Assembly (NCBI GenBank): GCA_000165345.1
Contig: CM000430.1
Location: forward strand, 704,001-768,000
Length of the DNA stretch: 64,000 bases
Reading direction: 5' to 3'
The translations under genes were made by a program, and so were the position numbers. The notes beneath the pieces were generated by a model that searched no databases, was not told the DNA's origin, and was given only the letters and a program-made list of their open reading frames with translations. Below are positions 13,226-21,780 of the stretch, piece after piece. How positions within the stretch are numbered: the first letter of the stretch is position 1; every line of letters begins with the position of its first letter.

Positions 13226-13648
13226 CACAAACACAGTGCATATAAATACTAGAATATAAGCCTTCCAACCTCTGAAACAAATAAAGTTCTTTAAAGAATC
13301 TCCAAGCTTTTTTTCTAGTCAAAATTGAATTTATTTATTTTAGGCGCCAAAGTCATGCCATTAACACGCAATTCTACAAAATTTGACAGTAATAACGGTA
13401 TAGGTAAAAAAACTCAGGCGGGCATGTGATTAATTACAGTTTTTCAATTAAAAGCAGACGAATAAAAATTCAAATTTAACATTTTGTACTAAGGCGCAAA
13501 CTCAGGTAAATTAAGTTAGGTTGGAAGTCTTTTTTTTTAACTATATTTCCAGTTGGTATTGTAGTCCAACGGTTATATAGTGAAAGTTAAGGTTGATTAA
13601 AGTTGAAACAGGTGAAAAATTTAAAAGAATATTGATAGAATTGTGAAG

Positions 13649-16600
13649 ATGGACTCTACAGCAGAAGTTTATTCTTTACCCCAACTACAAGACAGGATAA
13701 AGAGGGATCCAGGGGCTTATTTATCAGATTTTGAGCTACAATTACAGCATTTTTATTCAACATTGGATGTATTTAGATTAAATCCGCAAAATATTCCCAA
13801 AGAAATATTTCAGTTAATGATATTTATTGCTCAGACTTGCCCATATTACTATAAATATGGAGTATGTAACAAGTTTATTGAGAAACTTCTTGATGAATTA
13901 AAGAATAACTCTAGTTTAATGACTTCAGATATGCGAGTTTCAATGGCAACTTCATTAATTTTACTTTCAAATCAAAAAATTATTGACATTGTATATTTAT
14001 TGCCTCTATGGTTTGATTTAATGCGTCTTCCTGATAAAATTTTAAGATCAAAGTTATTGAAACATATAGTTTCAAGTATAGTCAATGCCAATATCAAGAA
14101 AACTGGTAAGAAAACGAGCGCAAAGAACAGGTCAAAGAGTATATTAAAGAGTAAACAAATTGGTACATCATTTTCAATTTCAGAAACAACATTTAGTTAC
14201 TTCGGCGAAACTGGGAATGATAACACTTCAGATCAAACTCTAAAACAATTAAAAAGTTATAATATATCTATGGGATATGACTTGAAAAAATTTAATTCTA
14301 CAGTCATGTCATTTTTAAGAGAAAGAATTGCAGATCCAAAAGATGTTTTACGTTCAATGGCTATTATTATTGATGTTTATAGGCAACATGTTTGGAATGA
14401 TGCTCAAGCTGTGAATATTATAGCTAAGTGTTGTGTGGGTTCAACTTCACCAAAAGTAGCTTCAACTGCAGCGAGATTTCTTTTGGGAAGGAATTGTTCA
14501 ATGGAAGAATTGGAGAATGATATAGAAGATGAAGATGAAAAGAGAGAATTGGCAGCAGAAGCAGCAAAGGCTATGAAATCTGCTTTAATCGGAATCAGTT
14601 CTAATAGTAAAAAGAAGAAAATGGAAAAGGCTAAGCAAGCAATGAAGAAATTGGAAAAACAAAAAAAGAATAAGACTGAAAACAACTCTTTAATTAAAAG
14701 TAACCAATGTATTGATTTAATACATTGTCCACAAGAATTTGCAGAAGAATTATTCCATAGAGTTGCTTCACATACTGATCCTTTTGAGGTTAGAATGACA
14801 CTTATTGGTCTTATTTCTCGTTTAATTGAACGTCATCGTCTGATTCTTATCAATTACTATTCATATCTTGGCAGATATTTATCTCCAAATAATAAAAATG
14901 TTACAAATGTTTTGGCTTTTTTGGCACAAGCTTGTCACGAATTAATACCTCCACAAGAACTTTCTTCAACTATCAAGTTACTTATGGATAATTTTGTTAA
15001 TGAATGTTGTAGGCCTGAAGTTATTGTGGTTGGTTTGAATACTATTCGAGAAATTTGTCAGAGAGTACCTTTGGTTATGGATAAGGATAAGCTCTTGGAT
15101 TTGGCTAACTTTAGAAAGATGAATGATAAAGGAGTATCAATCGCAGCAAAGAGTTTGGTTAATCTCTATAGGGAAATTATGCCAAGTATGCTTCATCGTT
15201 CTTTAATGAGCAAGGATGCTGCAATGAATATGAAGGATGAGAATCAAGATGAAAATAGTTTTGCTTATGGTTATAAAAAGATTGATCAAACTATTTCTGG
15301 AGCTGATTTGCTTATTAAGTATAATAATAGGAAGAATAAATCAAAGAAAGATACTGAGTCTGAATCTTGCCAATCTGTTGAAGATTATGATTACCAAGTG
15401 GATCAAGATACCGATCATGACCATGATGATGATGATGTAGATGGCATTGATCTTGAGGAAATTGATGAATTAAGTCAAGTTGATATGGAAGAACTCGCCT
15501 CTTCTAATGAAGATGATTTTGAGGACTCTGATGAATCAGATATTGGCTCTGATATTGAAGATTCTACTTCAATTAAGGTTTCCAAGTCTCCAGAAAATAT
15601 AATGGAAAGTAATAATATAGTTTTTGATAAGATTTTAGATCAGGATGACTTCAAATTGATTAAAAAACTTAAAACAAGAGTAGAAGCAGCAAAGGCTGTT
15701 GGAGCATCTAAAGGTCCGAAAAATGAGCAGTTAGACTTTTCTACAGCATCATCAGATGAAGGTTTTGGTTCAGGAATTAGTGAAGAGGATAATACTTCAG
15801 AAAGTGAAAGTGAAAATGATTCAGACTCTAATGATTCCACAGATTACGATATTAGTAGAGATATTAGAGATGAGATTACTCGTAACATGGGTAGAAAGAA
15901 GTTGAGTAAACAACAAAGGGTTCAATCTATTATGAAGGGAAGGCAGGACAGAGAGACATTTAAAGAAAGGAGAATTAGAGGTAAGTTTTTCTTGATTCTT
16001 ATGGTCCAATTGTTTTGTTTTTTTTTTTTGTGCATGTGGTTCAGTTATTTATAAGGAATTCAGAGAAGAATTTAAAGCAAATAGTCTTTATTTCTTTCTT
16101 TTTCCTCCTCCAAACAATTGAGTGGATAAAGTAAATTATGGCATGCAAAGCCGGCTAGTTACTACATCTATTAGTTACTAGTGACTATGTAAAAGGTTGT
16201 TGAGTCTAATGCCAAAGTAATTCGTTATTTGAATAGTTGATCAATTCTATCACTAGAAACTTTTATGTGGTTAGAGACATTCAATATATCAAGTACAAAC
16301 TTTTAATAATTATCCACAATCTAAAAAAAATTCATCTAAATGGTTTGGAGGAGTAAAAAGGGCTTATTTAGATATTAACAATAAATTTCAAACTCATGCA
16401 CTAAACTTTTAAAAGAGAAAAAAAAACCACAAAACTCTTGGAACACTTTAAAAATTAACAAACTTGTAAACAAACTTTACTTTATTTTTTTCATTTTACA
16501 GAATCTTTGAGTAAGAAACAAAGTATTCCAAATGAAGTCAAATCAAGAAATAAACCAATGATGATGGTAGTTAAGAAGAGAGGTATCAATAAGAAAAATG

Positions 16601-16692
16601 AAACAGCAAATATGAAATTGAGTAGGATCAAAAAACATCTTCGAAATTTGAAGAAGGATACTGGAAAAAAGAAAAGATTCAGAAAGAGGTAA
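13649..16692 (+). CDS. SDA1: SDA1 ribosome-biogenesis protein, two exons (13649..15980, 16502..16692)
   Basis: The N-terminus LPQLQDRIKRDPGAYLSDFELQLQHF is the SDA1 signature, followed by ARM-like repeats and an acidic tail. Exon 1 ends AGAG|GTAAGT. Exon 2 follows TTTTACAG and is in phase. It encodes NKPMMMVVKKRG...MKLSRIKKHLRNLKK, which parallels the yeast Sda1 C-terminus (KKNFVM...MSLRDKQKVLRAHI). Confidence 0.85.
15981..16501 (+). other. Unusually long (521 nt) SDA1 intron carrying nested long-range complementarities
   Basis: It has a GTAAGT donor and a TTTTACAG acceptor. Positions 16105-16115 (CTCCTCCAAAC) pair with 16343-16353 (GTTTGGAGGAG). Positions 16122-16129 (GTGGATAA) pair with 16309-16316 (TTATCCAC). 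The other nine introns in the window are 56-360 nt. Confidence 0.7.
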
Positions 16693-16882: not shown

Positions 16883-19800
16883 TCAGCCTTTTTTCTTTAT
16901 TCTATACAATTTTGGAAGGTCAAGATAATGCTCTTTAATTATTGATAATGAGCTTCTTGGATATATGTTGAATTTCTTATTTAGTATTGAGGAATACTGT
17001 TGGTACTTTATTCTATAAGATATAAAGAAATCATCAATTCCAAGTGATTTATAACGTGAATTAAGGCAAGTAATAATTGAATCATACACAGCACATTTAA
17101 TTAGCAAATTCCATTGGTATTTATTAGGAAGTTGCTTTTTATACGAATAAATATTGTAGCAACATGCGTTTGAAATCCACTCCAAAACTTTGACTAAGAA
17201 TCTGGGATTAATAAACCCTTGGTGTATTTTCTTAATTCTTTTAAAGGTTGAAAGCAGTTTTAGTATACCAATATATACAACAATCACTATATTTGTGTAA
17301 ATCTATATGATAAAGAAAAGAATTTTCATAATAAACAAGAATGAAAATTAATTAATTAATTAATTGGTTGGTTATTTGTTGAATTATATTTAAAACTTAC
17401 CGTAAATAAAGAATTGATTTTACAATCATATAGCAATCCATTCTTGATTCTAAAATCAAAGTATCTTATTAATTTTATACCCAAAACAGACCACATATAA
17501 TTTGACTTTTGAAGGTTTTCAGATATCGTCGTCGACTTAAACCTGTGAAAATTTGAATAATTACTTGTAAATTGGTGCTTAGTTGTCAAGGTTACAGTAT
17601 CCATAACACATATGAATTCCAAATTCTTCCATGGGGAAACCATGCAATTCAAATAGCTGTACTCACTGGAAAACTTCATTCCTGTCCATGATACTTGTTT
17701 ATGGAACTGTTTTAAGGCTATCTTAGCCTTGTTAATCATTTCTTTTTCATTTTGGCAGTCCTTTTCACTTTTGTTGGTATTTATTCTCTTTTCCACTGGA
17801 CTGCTTGTGCACTCTGTCGAAGGTGGGAAGGAAGAAGAGGACGATGAGGAAGACGACGAAGAAGATGAAGAGGAAGATGAAGAGGAACAAGATGATGAAC
17901 AGGAAGAGGAAGGCGAAGATAGTAAAACATCATCCTCCTCAAGGATGATGATCTCATTATTGTGGTCAATCCAAGGAAAGTTAGAGTTGATTTTGTCCTT
18001 GGAAACGTTCGATCCCCATAGTTTTTGTATATAAAGTAACTTTAAGAACTTTTTGGCGGACTCCAAATCGGATGTGAGAAAAAGAAAATCGTCTACCCAT
18101 CTCAATAAGAGACTTTCTTGCTTATTGCTCTGAGAAGGACTTTCTTGATCATAACTTTTGAGATTGGCACGGATTTGGCAATTCTGGTTGTTGATATTAT
18201 TATTAAACTCTTCGGAAGGTTGCAGTAAAACACTTTTAGCATTAATATTATATTCTGATATTTCTAGTCTTCTTTTTTTACTTGTACTAGTATTATAAAT
18301 ATTTATCTCATTTTCTTTAAATTCTGGGTAACGGGATAATCCTGTCTCAAGATCATGTTGTGAAAATAAGTCTTTTTCAGTTGGATCAAGTAATTGTACT
18401 TTTTCTTGTTTAATTGGATTCAGAAATGATAAAGAAATGTAAGAGGAGGAAAAAAATGAATGTCCCAAAAGATTCTGGATTTCTGGATTTAGATCTAAGA
18501 AATTATAATAGAGACAACAAAGAATGTAAGAAATACTTGATCCTTGTGGAATTCCAAAATCTTGCTTAAATAAGCTTAGAAATCTTTTTCCAAATTTGAT
18601 AGAATTTCCAAGTTGTTTAGATTTTATTAGTCTTAAAGACTTTGAACATGTCCTAAGTCGAAAAAAGCTTGTGTTAAGGTGGATCTTAATGATCTCCTTG
18701 ACTAATTTCCAGTTTATCACACGTCTTGAATTTAAAAAAGTAAAGATTTCTGCTTTTTTTTGTCCCAAAATACTCAAATCCTTGTTTGATAAACAAGAAT
18801 TTTTAAGATTCCAAAGAAGTTCATCTAAATCTGGTCCTATAATCCTCTTAATTTTTGATTTGACGACTTTTTGATCTTCATCATGATCTTTCTCAAAAAT
18901 AGGTACCATATTTAGTTTTCCTTTTGAAGTAATAATACATGATCTCCCAAGCTCATCTTGGTAAGAGTCTCTATTCATATTATCAAAAGGCGGAATAATT
19001 GTTGTTTTACTTAAAGCCCTTGAATATAAGCTCAAAAGGGAAATTTCATTTGGAAGAGAAATTACATCCAAAAACTCAAAAATCTTGGACTTATTTATAT
19101 TTTCAAAACAGTTCACTAAATCTGCTTTAATAATATAAATCTTTACATGGGACATTTTTTTACCTTGATTTTGATAAAAATCTTCATTCATTTGAAATTG
19201 TTGTTTGTCTCTTCTATTCTTTATCCACCAATTCTTTATAATCTTATAAATATCTCCAAACTGTACAAGAGAAGCACCAAGATGATTCTTTCCTGTCATT
19301 CTTAATAGAAAAGATCTTAAAATCTTGGAAGGATAAAACAACATATTATTTGTTGATGGACGTCTTATATCTATAATTCTATTACTTGAAGGACGTCTCA
19401 TTACCTTATTAATTGGAGTAGTAGGTACCGATGATCCTGAATTTATTCCAATTCCTATATTATAATTACCAAATCCTAATCCCACTCCTAATCTTCCTGG
19501 TGGTGTCATAATCTGACAATTTTGGCTTGAAAATGATGTAAAATTCTTTCCTCCTATATTATTAATATGACCATAATTATGATTATTTCCTACAATACCG
19601 TTATTACCATTACTATTAAAGTAGTTATAATAGTAATTGTTATTAATCCAACTTGTTGGAAGATCTCCACCAGTCCAAACTGAATTACAATCACAAAAAC
19701 CAATCTTCTTCTTTTCTTCACAAGTGTGATCTCTTTCAAGATTTTGTTGAAGAATTTGTCCAGATCCAACTTTTGATAAATTTATTAATGGTCTTAAACC

Positions 19801-21780
19801 TTTAGATTTCGGTACCCATCTTATTTTTGGGATATTTTCAGAAAACTCAGAGTTCTTATCAATTAATTTTGAAATTTCTTGAATTGAAGATAAATTCATT
19901 ATATAGTCTTTTGACTGAATTCCTTTTAATATACTTTCTAGATACCATTTATCAGCTTGTCTCACGATCTTTATCCAAACTGGATGTCTAAAATATCTTA
20001 CTTTATTACTACCCTCAATTTCTGTTGCATAGAAATGTCTTCTTAATATTGGAAATACCAAATATACTATTAAAAAATAAATGTTCCTAGCTAGATATGT
20101 TTTTCCAAGGCTAATTAAACTTTTTTTAATACTAGATCTTGTCTTATTATTCGGTACCTTTTTAGATCTTTGATTAGAATTAATTAAATTTTTTGATTCT
20201 TTAATAAATTGATAACTTTTTTCTTCAAGTATTCTATTTACCCAATTTGAAACCTCAATTCCATTCATTGCATGTTGAATCTTAAAAGTTTCTCTAATAT
20301 GAAGATTCACAATTATTGGGATCTTTTTATTAATAAAAGTCTTAAAGTTTTTAAAGGTACCAAGTATATTCTTTGGTAATACTTTAATCAAGTATAATCT
20401 TAAAAAATTTACTACTCTAGTAGAACTTGTTTCAAAACAAGGAATAGGTAATTTATTGAAGTTTTGTAAATCTGAATCTTTAATTGGTTCTATTGGACAT
20501 ATTTGATCTAGAAAGTTAACTGGAGACGTATTTCTAATATTTAACAATAAATTTTGGAATTCTTCCATCATAGCAGAAGCCAATTTACATTTAACACGGG
20601 AGAATTTTGTCATTTCATAACTTCCAAGTAATCCAATCAAACTTTGTCTGTTGTGATCTTTGAATATATGATCAGTTTGAATAATAAATCTAAGTAGTGT
20701 TCTTGCTCCTAATAAATTTGGAGGTAAAAGTCTTAGAACAGATAAACAAGGAAGACCTCCTCTTTTTGAGAAATGATCACAATAAAGAAATGTTGAGCGA
20801 TATGGAATATCAATTTTGTAGATTTTAGAAAGTCTTGAATCTTTAATAATTCCTCCTGATCTTTTGTTTACTTGTCTTGGAGTTTCATCTAAAGGCTTAA
20901 CTTCTTCTTTTTCCTCAATTGTAAGAATTGGAGTTAAAGAAGATGATGATACAAATGAATTGGTCTTTTTTGGCCCTGTCTCATAAAGTCTAGCAAGCTC
21001 TTCCAGGAAGTCATTAGTTAACATTCTACCAGCTTGTTGAATGAGAATTTCAGAGTGATCACCAAGTATTCTAAAGATAATACAGCAAACAAATAAGAAG
21101 AGAATCTCAATAGGACCTATTTTGGAAAGAAGAGTATTCCAAGCATGGAGGTTTTGAAACTTGTATAAAGTAGAATTACAGAATGAGTATTTCTTGGGCT
21201 TTATAGTGTCGAAGCTAGTTCTTAATCCTGAATAACTCCCTGAATGAAAGATCCTAATCCTTGGAAAGTGCTTACGGAGTAGGAGCTCAAAGTCTTGTAC
21301 TTGATAGGTCAGAGAATCCTTTTCAGAATCTGGAATTATATTCTTAATTTGGTCTGTAATAAAGGAAGGAGACAATGTCTCATTATATTCGGTATTTCTT
21401 GACCTCTTTCCTGAAGACATAGACGACTGATTTCTAGGTGAGCTAAAGTAGTTCTGACCTAGTATCGATGACCACTCGAGCAATTTTTCGATATTTATAC
21501 CCAACAACTTCCTCCTGTCTCCGTTAATATCAAGACTATTGTCTAAGGAATTAAATGTAAGTTCCCTTAAGCCAAGAAATCCCTCCTTTAAAGCTTTTGG
21601 TATAGAAGGATCTTCCAGTATCAAAGTCTCTTCAAGTAGCCTCCTTAACTCCCCTGAGGAATCATTGTACAATCCTTCTTCTTTGAATACTCTAATCTTT
21701 CTTTTCTGCTCCAGGTACTCTCCCAGCGTCAGAACCTCTTGCTTCATCAACACTGCTAAAGCACCCTTCAACACACTCAT
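16883..21780 (-). CDS. TERT: Telomerase reverse transcriptase, two exons (21780..17401, 17302..16883)
   Basis: T-motif FYATEIEGSNKVRYFRHPVW; motif A YIIKADLVNCFENI; motif B' FGIPQGSSISYILCCLYY; motif C LLLRWVDDFLFLT; motif E WTGMKF. The ORF ends at ACG|GTAAGT. A 98-nt intron (17303..17400, acceptor ATATAG) joins in phase to the 134-aa ORF that supplies the C-terminal extension (thumb). Confidence 0.9.

Follow-up and report, generated by a model that had tools for sequence, protein, structure and literature searches.

The single intron of SDA1 in Cryptosporidium parvum harbours a sense-strand RNA structure that is conserved throughout the genus, covaries and occurs in a single copy, and the stretches of intron flanking it are complementary to each other beyond chance in most of the species compared. 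We regard an intron-hosted, H/ACA-like orphan snoRNA combined with a splice-site-approximating stem as the probable explanation. An initial annotation of the locus had named an intron-hosted ncRNA and a splice-site-approximating structure as two possible readings of this intron; comparison across species lends support to each of them, and the one does not exclude the other.

The SDA1 gene and its intron

The window, the whole stretch of 64,000 nucleotides that was analyzed, belongs to C. parvum chromosome 2 and contains, on the plus strand, the gene encoding SDA1, a pre-60S ribosome-biogenesis factor. Exon 1 (13649–15980) extends from the ATG through the last base ahead of the intron, and exon 2 (16502–16692), comprising the conserved C-terminal 63 codons and the stop, yielded a tblastn match in all ten Cryptosporidium species. 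The intervening intron of 521 nt (15981–16501) starts with GTAAGT, ends with TTTTACAG and is removed by a phase-1 splice preserving the SDA1 reading frame. The spliced product of 840 aa is identical to the public model of C. parvum IOWA-ATCC (QOY42885.1/CPATCC_000571), confirming that the intron initially delineated is real, and SDA1_HEAT (PF08158) is on record for the homologues. It is the only SDA1 intron in Cryptosporidium, and in all ten species examined the orthologous intron shares its position, its phase and the GTAAGT...AG ends, with lengths ranging from 246 to 582 nt. Based on the 1370 introns that make up 1.29% of the C. parvum genome according to Li et al. 2022 (PMC9465071), and on a genome of ~9.1 Mb, the mean intron measures ~86 nt, so that the SDA1 intron reaches roughly six times the mean.

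The branch-site consensus pointed to CTTTAC (16475–16480, plus strand) as candidate branch site, which aligns with CTTAAC of the relatives and would make 16479 the branch A, 22 nt ahead of the 3' splice site. An alternative candidate, TTAAC, is located at 16455–16459. Five public SDA1 models (C. parvum Iowa II, C. ubiquitum, chipmunk genotype I, C. ryanae and C. xiaoi) run through the intron, meet an early stop and lack the conserved C-terminal exon; intron retention would therefore yield a protein devoid of the conserved C-terminus. The next large gene is TERT (17356–21780, minus strand), and the SDA1–TERT neighbourhood is kept in all species.

A conserved and covarying RNA structure inside the intron

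Within the intron we delineated a predicted RNA on the plus strand (16139–16300) built of a hairpin, a hinge, a second hairpin and an ACA tail, with putative ends, and supported by conservation, MFE folds and covariation; its predicted length varies between 152 and 174 nt across the species. The RNAalifold consensus of the 5' domain (16139–16214), together with covariation and conservation, yielded a three-way junction formed by P1 (16139–16144 paired with 16209–16214), an invariant junction strand of 9 nt, GCAAAGCCG (16145–16153), P2 (16154–16164 paired with 16172–16182) and P3 (16183–16186 paired with 16203–16206), the latter closing an invariant-rich loop (16187–16202). The H-box-like motif AAAGUA (16214–16219) follows directly after P1. 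The 3' hairpin (16226–16295), derived from MFE folds and covariation, consists of stems a, b and c with small internal loops between them, and leads into the ACA box candidate (16295–16297), with AAC next. The initial annotation had pointed to a core of ~180 nt holding a GCATGCAAAGCCGGCTAG box and a duplicated TAGTTACTA. Both are present inside the enclosing helices, where the conserved 5' domain opens with the box (16141–16158) and the duplication (16156–16164 and 16172–16180) represents both strands of a covarying hairpin.

More than 40 bases of the 5' domain are invariant, and its identity to C. parvum amounts to 69% in C. muris and to 85–100% in the remaining eight species. The corresponding values are 60–100% for the adjacent exons and 18–94% for the intron flanks, the latter dropping to 31–55% in C. 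canis, C. felis, C. ryanae and C. xiaoi. The 5' domain is thus more conserved than the neighbouring exons. In the alignment, 98.5% of its cells are paired, with compensatory changes in six pairs, a combination of pairing and compensation reached by none of 500 shuffles, and controls slid along the alignment were only 16–50% paired. Pairing of P2 in particular is maintained through five compensatory positions. G-U or U-G pairs account for 16 of the 200 counted cells, and as these fit the sense strand alone, they argue against a structure on the minus strand. For the 3' hairpin, 88–96% of the cells are paired in seven species, with one compensatory pair per stem.

A covariance model of the 5' domain recovered one copy per locus and no paralogue in the 64-kb window and the nine related loci. 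Single-sequence folding of the 101 nt at 16130–16230 was unremarkable (z = +0.4 for the plus and −1.7 for the minus strand), so that the evidence for the structure is comparative and not energetic. A composite core motif gave zero matches in the metagenome scan, and a complement of the invariant loop was found nowhere else in the 64-kb window. Together, these data bear out the proposal of an intron-hosted ncRNA insofar as the core holds a single-copy, sense-strand RNA structure that covaries and is conserved throughout the genus.

Pairing of the intron flanks

In C. parvum, the RNA is enclosed by nested helices, two of which had been described in the initial annotation. The middle helix (16098–16122 paired with 16336–16360) has arms of 25 nt that are 88% complementary, extending the perfect 11-nt match between CTCCTCCAAAC (16105–16115) and GTTTGGAGGAG (16343–16353), which is present as described. 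Of the nested 8-nt match, the 5' arm GTGGATAA (16122–16129, 10 nt upstream of the RNA) was placed correctly, whereas its 3' arm TTATCCAC lies at 16310–16317 and not at 16309–16316. Across species this inner helix is just 59% paired, and the middle helix is 71–77% paired in the relatives. A third, outer helix (16002–16029 paired with 16418–16445) was found beyond these two, based on the inverted repeat as well as the MFE and centroid folds; its 28-nt arms are 82% complementary, with core pairs at 16005–16009/16438–16442 and 16012–16017/16430–16435, and it is 92.5% paired in the five species having these columns.

We assessed the role of chance with 1000 dinucleotide-preserving shuffles of the whole intron. 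Perfect inverted repeats of 11 nt or longer occurred in 222 of the shuffles (22%), mostly made of A/T runs, one of at least 11 nt with at least six G/C in a single shuffle, and a G/C-rich 11-mer with a nested, co-linear 8-mer in none, in line with the view that two co-linear helices are improbable by chance. Folding of the whole intron relative to shuffles gave z values of −2.8 for C. parvum, −3.3 for C. canis and −5.2 for C. ubiquitum. Covariation of the two helices in orthologous introns, which the initial annotation had proposed as a check, proved weak: column by column they covary little, and only the C. parvum clade possesses them. Therefore they are not themselves the conserved RNA.

Pairing between the flanks as such recurs. 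The flank–flank duplex beats shuffled flanks in eight of the ten species (z = −2.0 to −6.2), with pairing sequences that are unrelated among the parvum, canis and ryanae/xiaoi groups, while C. felis and C. muris show no significant pairing against the same kind of control. Since the flanks pair beyond chance through clade-specific sequences around the core, we propose that they form a zipper stem around the RNA, consistent with the splice-site-approximating structure initially suggested. In Saccharomyces cerevisiae, zipper stems are defined by a total linker of 42–85 nt (Rangan et al., PMC12350175). The outer helix leaves linkers of 21 and ~33 nt, in total ~54 nt and inside this range, with the putative branch A at 16479; the alternative branch site at 16458 would shorten the 3' linker to 12 nt and take the stem outside the yeast definition.

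The yeast zipper stems of RPS17B and RPL7A/B offer a parallel for this total linker, and the divergence of sequence with pairing kept is also common to both systems (PMC12350175). Unlike its yeast counterparts, the predicted Cryptosporidium stem stacks three interrupted helices over ~150 nt per side, encloses a conserved RNA instead of a loop and belongs to an apicomplexan host with very short introns. A second parallel is provided by the external stems that Darzacq and Kiss reportedly described in 2000 for box C/D snoRNAs, and that are said to flank intronic snoRNAs with absent or weak terminal stems. The C. parvum inverted repeats likewise lie just outside the RNA, 10 nt away on each side, and could likewise hold the RNA fold during processing; in contrast to those external stems, the inner helix of C. 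parvum is poorly conserved. A zipper rebuilt clade by clade provides a natural test of whether splice-site-approximating stems, as characterized in yeast, operate in an apicomplexan.

Class of the embedded RNA and competing explanations

Box H/ACA snoRNAs adopt a hairpin-hinge-hairpin-tail layout of ~120–160 nt with an H box of the form ANANNA and an ACA 3 nt from the mature 3' end, and their pseudouridylation pocket sets the target position 14–16 nt ahead of the box, be it H or ACA. Independent MFE folds returned this layout for the SDA1 element in nine of the ten species, with covariation in both hairpins. At the aligned position, ACA is found in nine species and AUA in C. canis, at or a few nt from the last paired base. 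The hinge motif directly after P1 reads ANANNA in seven species and, on reading the hinge sequences, ANANNG in the other three; the hinges are A-rich, and shuffling them gives ANANNA in 24–100%. An ACA tail and an H-like hinge motif do occupy conserved positions in this intron, for which the initial annotation had reported no clear H/ACA boxes.

In the 5' hairpin, P2 is separated from the H box by ~33 nt and not 14–16 nt, and no pseudouridylation pocket is recognisable. In the 3' hairpin, by hand counts on the folds, the ACA lies 14–16 nt away from where the upper stem begins in C. ryanae, C. xiaoi and C. muris, and ~18 nt away in the parvum clade, where only 3x3 and 4x4 internal loops are available; the pocket sequences are not conserved between clades. 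We searched for rRNA antisense elements in 77 eukaryotic rDNA contigs from metagenomes, a set of which Cryptosporidium rRNA and snRNAs are not part. The best k-mer complement in this eukaryotic rDNA was the 9-nt TGTTGAGTC, complementary to 18S GACTCAACA, a match to the universal 18S GACUCAACA that is at chance level. RNAduplex on six full eukaryotic rDNA units, again from outside Cryptosporidium, performed no better than with shuffled segments, and no bipartite antisense element was found in this non-Cryptosporidium metagenome rDNA. Orphan H/ACA RNAs exist, and with no rRNA target found, we treat the element as such an orphan.

Compared with intron-encoded box H/ACA snoRNAs, such as the four of this class that Li et al. 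2022 report for C. parvum, and with the intronic snoRNAs of Plasmodium, the element is likewise intronic, on the sense strand and hosted by a ribosome-biogenesis gene. It also resembles H/ACA snoRNAs in its size of ~160 nt, its hairpin-hinge-hairpin-tail layout, its single copy kept across the genus, the ACA after the 3' hairpin and the A-rich H-like motif after the 5' hairpin. It differs from them in that a three-way junction, with an invariant strand of 9 nt and an invariant-rich loop of 16 nt, takes the place of a simple pocket in the 5' hairpin, that the 14–16 nt rule applies only to the 3' hairpin and only in three distant species, that neither an rRNA target nor an Rfam match was found and that three species have ANANNG as their H box.

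Other RNA classes were compared with the intron. The Infernal scan against Rfam proposed in the initial annotation gave no match in the whole window at gathering thresholds, and only chance-level matches for the intron and its core at E values up to 10. The absence of C/D boxes noted initially holds: the intron contains neither TGATGA nor CTGA, P1 is bordered by GCAAAG and GUCUA, and Rfam C/D models score 12.8–25.2 bits against gathering thresholds of 45–51, so that the element does not fit a box C/D snoRNA. ARAGORN predicted zero tRNA or tmRNA genes in 15900–16600. A MITE or other inverted-repeat element was rejected, as no second copy was found by self-BLAST of the intron against the 64-kb window or by the covariance model in the nine related loci. 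By eye, the element fitted neither a K-turn, a hammerhead, a twister, an SRP Alu domain nor an RNase MRP CR-I, none of them with Rfam support, and the same applies to U5 loop 1 on the minus strand, which the G-U pairs oppose as well.

For the H/ACA-like orphan snoRNA with its zipper stem, which we favour, the following sequence of events can be envisaged. The nascent intron would be bound by H/ACA proteins, and splicing and debranching, followed by exonuclease trimming, would reduce it to the protected, stable RNA. The complementary intron segments flanking the RNA would zip up as a long, interrupted stem that carries the RNA on its end. [quoted passage not shown] The need for the RNA may be what kept the intron at one position genus-wide.

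It is conceivable, if unlikely, that the three-way junction is no modification guide but the core of a Cryptosporidium-specific RNP or of a cis-acting sensor, with the ACA-tailed scaffold serving stability only. Such an RNP might work on pre-rRNA in the manner of snR30/U17, as a snoRNA for processing or chaperoning, and such a sensor might allow Sda1 or another assembly factor to feed back on the splicing of SDA1 pre-mRNA. If true, this non-guide RNA would represent a new family whose function is not predictable from box motifs.

We also consider it unlikely that the element acts purely as a cis-acting pre-mRNA fold, through which a protein such as Sda1, a ribosomal protein or an assembly factor tunes splicing or retention of SDA1 with no stable RNA being released. 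The compact three-way junction of invariant bases lacking guide-like rRNA complementarity, the ribosome-biogenesis host and the read-through annotations in C. parvum and four other species would fit such a fold, as would the resemblance of zipper and conserved structure to yeast intron regulators (PMC12350175; RPL7B preprint). The autoregulatory yeast introns of RPL30, RPS14B, RPL7B and DBP2 likewise combine a conserved structure, a ribosome-related gene and a conserved intron position, whereas the SDA1 element differs from them in its ACA-tailed two-hairpin layout, and no partner protein and no competing, mutually exclusive structure was identified for it. Moreover, the hairpin-hinge-hairpin-ACA layout with its conserved ACA tail has no obvious role in cis, and intronic small RNAs do accumulate in C. 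parvum (PMC9465071).

Doubtful is a stable intronic RNA outside the H/ACA class, in which the three-way junction is the unit of a genus-specific RNP and the ACA and H-like motifs are coincidences of an A-rich sequence. It would account for the imperfect H box, for a best-conserved domain devoid of a pocket fitting the 14–16 nt rule and for the missing Rfam match, and Li et al. 2022 count 19 intronic ncRNAs of unknown class. Coincidence is difficult to reconcile with an ACA or AUA that immediately follows the 3' hairpin in the alignment and an ANANNR at a fixed position after P1, each in ten of ten species.

Very improbable, and already disfavoured, is the view that the helices are neutral inverted repeats, arisen by chance or as terminal repeats of a mobile element, and that the core is a DNA regulatory site. 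The frequency of perfect 11-nt inverted repeats among the shuffles, the weak column-wise covariation of the C. parvum helices and the palindromes GCATGC and AGCCGGCT in the core are compatible with it. Yet both the G/C-rich 11-mer and the nested arrangement are far rarer in shuffles, neither the 64-kb window nor the related loci contain a further copy of any intron segment, flank pairing recurs in separate clades with different sequences, and GCATGC is not conserved in C. muris. Compensation in P2 together with the strand-specific G-U pairs favours RNA over DNA.

The element was also considered as all or part of the missing telomerase RNA of Cryptosporidium, because TERT lies ~0.9 kb away from it and because a three-way junction in the 5' hairpin with an H/ACA-like layout resembles the CR4/5 and H/ACA domains of vertebrate telomerase RNA, but this is hardly credible, as neither strand of the intron holds a 7-mer of (CCTAAA)n in any permutation, refuting a complete telomerase RNA by its absent template, and as the P3 loop measures 11–16 nt versus 5 nt for the P6.1 loop.

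In the stripped-down genome of Cryptosporidium, introns are few and very short, and only ~10 snoRNAs are recognised. Li et al. 2022 (PMC9465071) report 23 intronic ncRNAs in C. parvum, including the four snoRNAs, and suggest that such RNAs preserve introns; their text names no host gene that would tie a Cp_snc identifier to the element. The annotated intronic ncRNA cgd2_1365 is probably a different RNA, since it reads as one of the 'benchmark' ncRNAs taken from Rfam families and the window is free of Rfam matches. The element is either a well-defined addition to an incomplete snoRNA catalogue or the confirmation of an entry already listed. It is a real but fairly ordinary feature, a solid and moderately interesting instance of a known phenomenon that overturns nothing. 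With one intron position in ten of ten species and an RNA more conserved than the exons around it, the SDA1 intron would be a clear case of an intron retained for the sake of an ncRNA.

The SDA1 intron in C. parvum and its relatives

The base composition of the window is that of AT-rich eukaryotic DNA, in which SDA1 comprises two exons, a long open reading frame (13643–16054) and a short one (16507–16692). Splicing position 15980 onto 16502 leaves the reading frame intact and yields an 840-residue SDA1 protein with 98% identity to C. hominis SDA1 and 100% identity, over 93% of length, to the older 801-residue C. parvum Iowa II model. Every residue matches the newer C. parvum IOWA-ATCC model (QOY42885.1/CPATCC_000571), which identifies the source of the window as C. 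parvum. The junction 15980^16502 proposed in the initial annotation is already present in public annotation. Five public SDA1 models are single-exon read-throughs with a stop codon inside the intron: XP_626530.1 of C. parvum Iowa II (window 13649–16054, 801 residues) and those of C. ubiquitum (locus L007, 3001–5550, 849 residues), chipmunk genotype I (L008, 3001–5478, 825 residues), C. ryanae (L009, 3001–5433, 810 residues) and C. xiaoi (L010, 3001–5295, 764 residues). The conserved C-terminal exon is missing from all five and was located downstream in each by tblastn.

The intron (15981–16501; GTAAGT...TTTTACAG) is 521 nt long. The 1370 introns of C. parvum make up 1.29% of the genome (Li et al. 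2022, PMC9465071), which for a genome of ~9.1 Mb corresponds to a mean intron of ~86 nt, so that the SDA1 intron is indeed outsized at ~6 times the norm. We compared the SDA1 loci of nine relatives (C. hominis, C. meleagridis, chipmunk genotype I, C. ubiquitum, C. canis, C. felis, C. ryanae, C. xiaoi and C. muris), locating both exons in each by tblastn. All ten species carry the intron in identical codon phase with GTAAGT...AG ends, and its length ranges from 246 nt (C. muris) to 582 nt (C. ubiquitum); the short orthologous introns that had been named as evidence against an embedded structure were not found. The intron is ancient within Cryptosporidium, and its length is always several-fold above the typical one.

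A conserved central RNA structure with an H/ACA-like layout

The alignment of the ten introns contains a block that is near-invariant in every species, TGGCATGCAAAGCCGGCT ... GTGACTATGTAAAAGGTTGTTGAGTCTAATGCCA, at 16139–16214, followed 3' of 16214 by a moderately conserved block up to TACAAAC at 16294–16300. The 76-nt 5' block of C. canis, C. felis and C. ryanae is 95%, 85% and 87% identical to that of C. parvum, respectively, with values of 68–83% for the well-conserved coding exons beside the intron and 31–55% for the intron flanks. As judged from these alignments, conservation lies in the centre of the intron rather than in the bracketing helices. Two previously flagged core motifs are both present and take on a structural meaning: the GCATGCAAAGCCGGCTAG box is the start of the conserved 5' block, and the duplicated TAGTTACTA represents the two strands of one hairpin.

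RNAalifold predicted, on the sense strand, a terminal stem P1 (16139–16144/16209–16214), a hairpin P2 (16154–16164/16172–16182) and a short hairpin P3 (16183–16186/16203–16206), together forming a three-way junction with an invariant 9-nt junction strand, GCAAAGCCG. Within this 5' domain 98.5% of the alignment cells are paired and compensatory changes occur at six pairs, five of them within P2, as exemplified by CUAGUUACUA/UAGUUACUAG in C. parvum versus CUAAUAAUUA/UAAUUAUUAG in C. felis. The observed pairing values were reached by none of 500 shuffles, and slid controls were 16–50% paired. G-U pairs account for 16 of 200 cells; as these are A-C mismatches on the opposite strand, the predicted structure belongs to the SDA1-transcribed strand. 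The single-sequence folding energy of the 101-nt stretch around the 5' domain was unremarkable, and the case for an RNA structure here rests on the comparison between species. Between C. parvum and C. hominis the 76-nt domain shows no difference.

Independent folds of each species, covering P1 through the conserved tail, agreed in nine of the ten species: the 5' domain is followed by a single-stranded hinge, a long 3' hairpin and a short tail. In the seven well-aligning species, the 3' hairpin has three stems that are 88–96% paired, with one compensatory pair each. The statement that clear H/ACA boxes are lacking had to be revised, as nine of ten species have ACA at the corresponding alignment position of the tail (AUA in C. 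canis) and the motif immediately 3' of P1 is ANANNA in seven (ANANNG in C. meleagridis, C. ryanae and C. xiaoi); an H box in the hinge is, however, unsurprising given that the hinge is A-rich. By hand count, an internal loop of the 3' hairpin lies 14–16 nt upstream of the ACA in C. ryanae, C. xiaoi and C. muris, a spacing expected of an H/ACA pocket. The 5' hairpin forms a three-way junction in which no pocket has the required spacing, the parvum-clade 3' hairpin has only small loops with ~18 nt to the ACA, and the pocket sequences vary from clade to clade. Because these features, together with the A-rich hinge, argue against full membership, we describe the RNA as H/ACA-like.

The 3' hairpin differs at three positions within 20 nt between C. 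parvum (16280–16297, TCAATATATCAAGTACA) and C. hominis (locus L001, 5632–5649, TCAACATAACAAATACA), two of the changes keeping or strengthening pairing (G-U to G-C, U-G to U-A) and the remaining one giving an A-A mismatch.

Pairing of the intron flanks

The 11-nt perfect helix of the initial annotation lies exactly as placed (16105–16115 with 16343–16353), at the centre of 25-nt arms (16098–16122/16336–16360) with 88% complementarity. The nested 8-nt helix exists as well, pairing GTGGATAA at 16122–16129 with TTATCCAC at 16310–16317, its 3' arm having originally been set one base off, and an additional outer helix joins 16002–16029 with 16418–16445. Among 1000 dinucleotide-preserving shuffles of the intron, perfect inverted repeats of at least 11 nt arose in 22%, mostly as A/T runs; one with at least six G/C arose in a single shuffle and the nested arrangement in none, in agreement with the view that two co-linear helices are unlikely by chance. 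Folding of the whole C. parvum intron is more stable than that of shuffled versions (z = -2.8), and the minimum-energy and centroid folds stack the three helices as one long interrupted stem, of which the inner helix is 10 nt from the predicted RNA on each side.

Compared column by column, the C. parvum helices are kept in close relatives, being paired to 92.5% (outer), 71–77% (middle) and 59% (inner). Covariation scarcely exceeded that of slid controls, and C. felis, C. ryanae, C. xiaoi and C. muris, whose introns are shorter, lack the arms. An alignment-free comparison of the best flank-to-flank duplex with dinucleotide-shuffled flanks showed stronger pairing in eight of the ten species, with z values of -4.5 for C. 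parvum, -4.1 for C. hominis, -6.2 for C. meleagridis, -3.4 for chipmunk genotype I, -2.0 for C. ubiquitum, -3.2 for C. canis, -2.8 for C. ryanae and -3.6 for C. xiaoi, the remaining values being -0.9 for C. felis and 0.0 for C. muris. The arms are unrelated between groups: CCUCCUCC pairs with GGAGGAG in the parvum group and GGUGGUGG with CCACC... in C. canis, and those of C. ryanae and C. xiaoi are A/U-rich and related to neither. Since the flanks pair in eight species, by sequences that are unrelated between the groups, pairing around the RNA is recurrent and the particular helices are not.

Whole-intron z values were -3.3 for C. canis and -5.2 for C. ubiquitum, the latter being the strongest fold excess among the introns tested. 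The left flank of the C. ubiquitum intron (L007, 5324–5905) contains a long CT-rich run, UUCUCCUUCUCC...CCUCCUCCUCCUCC, which pairs with a GA-rich run, GGAGAAGGAGAAAGAG, of the right flank.

In C. parvum, 21 nt separate the 5' splice site from the start of the outer helix, and ~33 nt separate its end from the candidate branch A. This A, at 16479, belongs to CTTTAC, a motif aligned to CTTAAC in relatives. Given this branch point the helix would leave a linker of ~54 nt, inside the range of 42–85 nt that defines zipper stems in yeast (PMC12350175).

Class, target and genomic neighborhood

At gathering thresholds, Rfam matched nothing in the whole 64-kb window; the Infernal search suggested initially, run on the intron and core, gave chance-level matches only and no family, and ARAGORN found no tRNA. 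Searched over 139 kb, a covariance model built on the 5' domain matched once per locus (76–113 bits) and nowhere else, and the composite core motif was not found in the metagenome collection. rRNA targets were sought in 77 eukaryotic rDNA contigs from metagenomes. The sole recurrent complement, 9 nt of UGUUGAGUC versus universal 18S GACUCAACA, is about chance expectation, and RNAduplex gave the invariant segments no better energies against six full rDNA units than it gave shuffled ones. The RNA is provisionally an orphan without rRNA target, provisionally because the search covered the rDNA of other eukaryotes. The invariant UGUUGAGUCUAAU (16198–16210) could pair at 12 of 13 positions with universal 18S AUUUGACUCAACA, with one U-U mismatch; its 9-nt core, the part compared with the rDNA contigs, matched at chance level. 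This 18S segment is presumably the helix-31 loop region, which bears pseudouridine in yeast.

We consider it probable that the SDA1 intron hosts an H/ACA-like orphan snoRNA, its flanks forming a zipper or external stem. The RNA would be released from the spliced intron, and the flanks would zip into a stem with two effects, presentation of the RNA and a shorter effective intron. This explanation combines both earlier readings, a splice-site-approximating structure and an intron-hosted ncRNA, as recurrent flank pairing and a conserved core RNA. It fits the report of 23 intronic ncRNAs (4 snoRNAs) in C. parvum, which may explain the survival of some introns (Li et al. 2022, PMC9465071); the SDA1 intron RNA may already be among the unnamed Cp_snc entries of that study. 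Both zipper stems and snoRNAs hosted by introns of ribosome-biogenesis genes are known kinds; the SDA1 element is unusual in its invariant three-way junction, and no curated family matched it.

The main rival, to which we assign a rather small chance, takes the conserved fold as a cis-acting, protein-binding regulator of SDA1 splicing. The second, a stable RNA belonging to another class that is specific to the genus, appears improbable. Neutral repeats, a mobile element or a DNA site are disfavoured by the shuffle results, the lack of other copies in the searches and the strand-specific covariation.

The next large gene is TERT (17356–21780, minus strand), a 1474-residue open reading frame with a long poly-serine run whose orthologues carry Telomerase_RBD; all ten species share the gene order Arf, PDCD2, SDA1, TERT. 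As TERT adjoins SDA1, and as the telomerase RNA of vertebrates has both a three-way junction and an H/ACA domain, we looked for a telomere template, and rejected a telomerase RNA as no 7-mer of the telomere repeat, CCTAAA, occurs within the intron. Between SDA1 and TERT lies a 134-residue open reading frame (16883–17287, minus strand), and C. muris has an annotated 134-residue gene without Pfam family at the corresponding place (L006, 5756–6216); the two, alike in place and length, may represent a small conserved protein. Elsewhere in the window, G+C falls to 0.18–0.22 over ~4 kb (55001–59000), compared with ~0.30 in the remainder.
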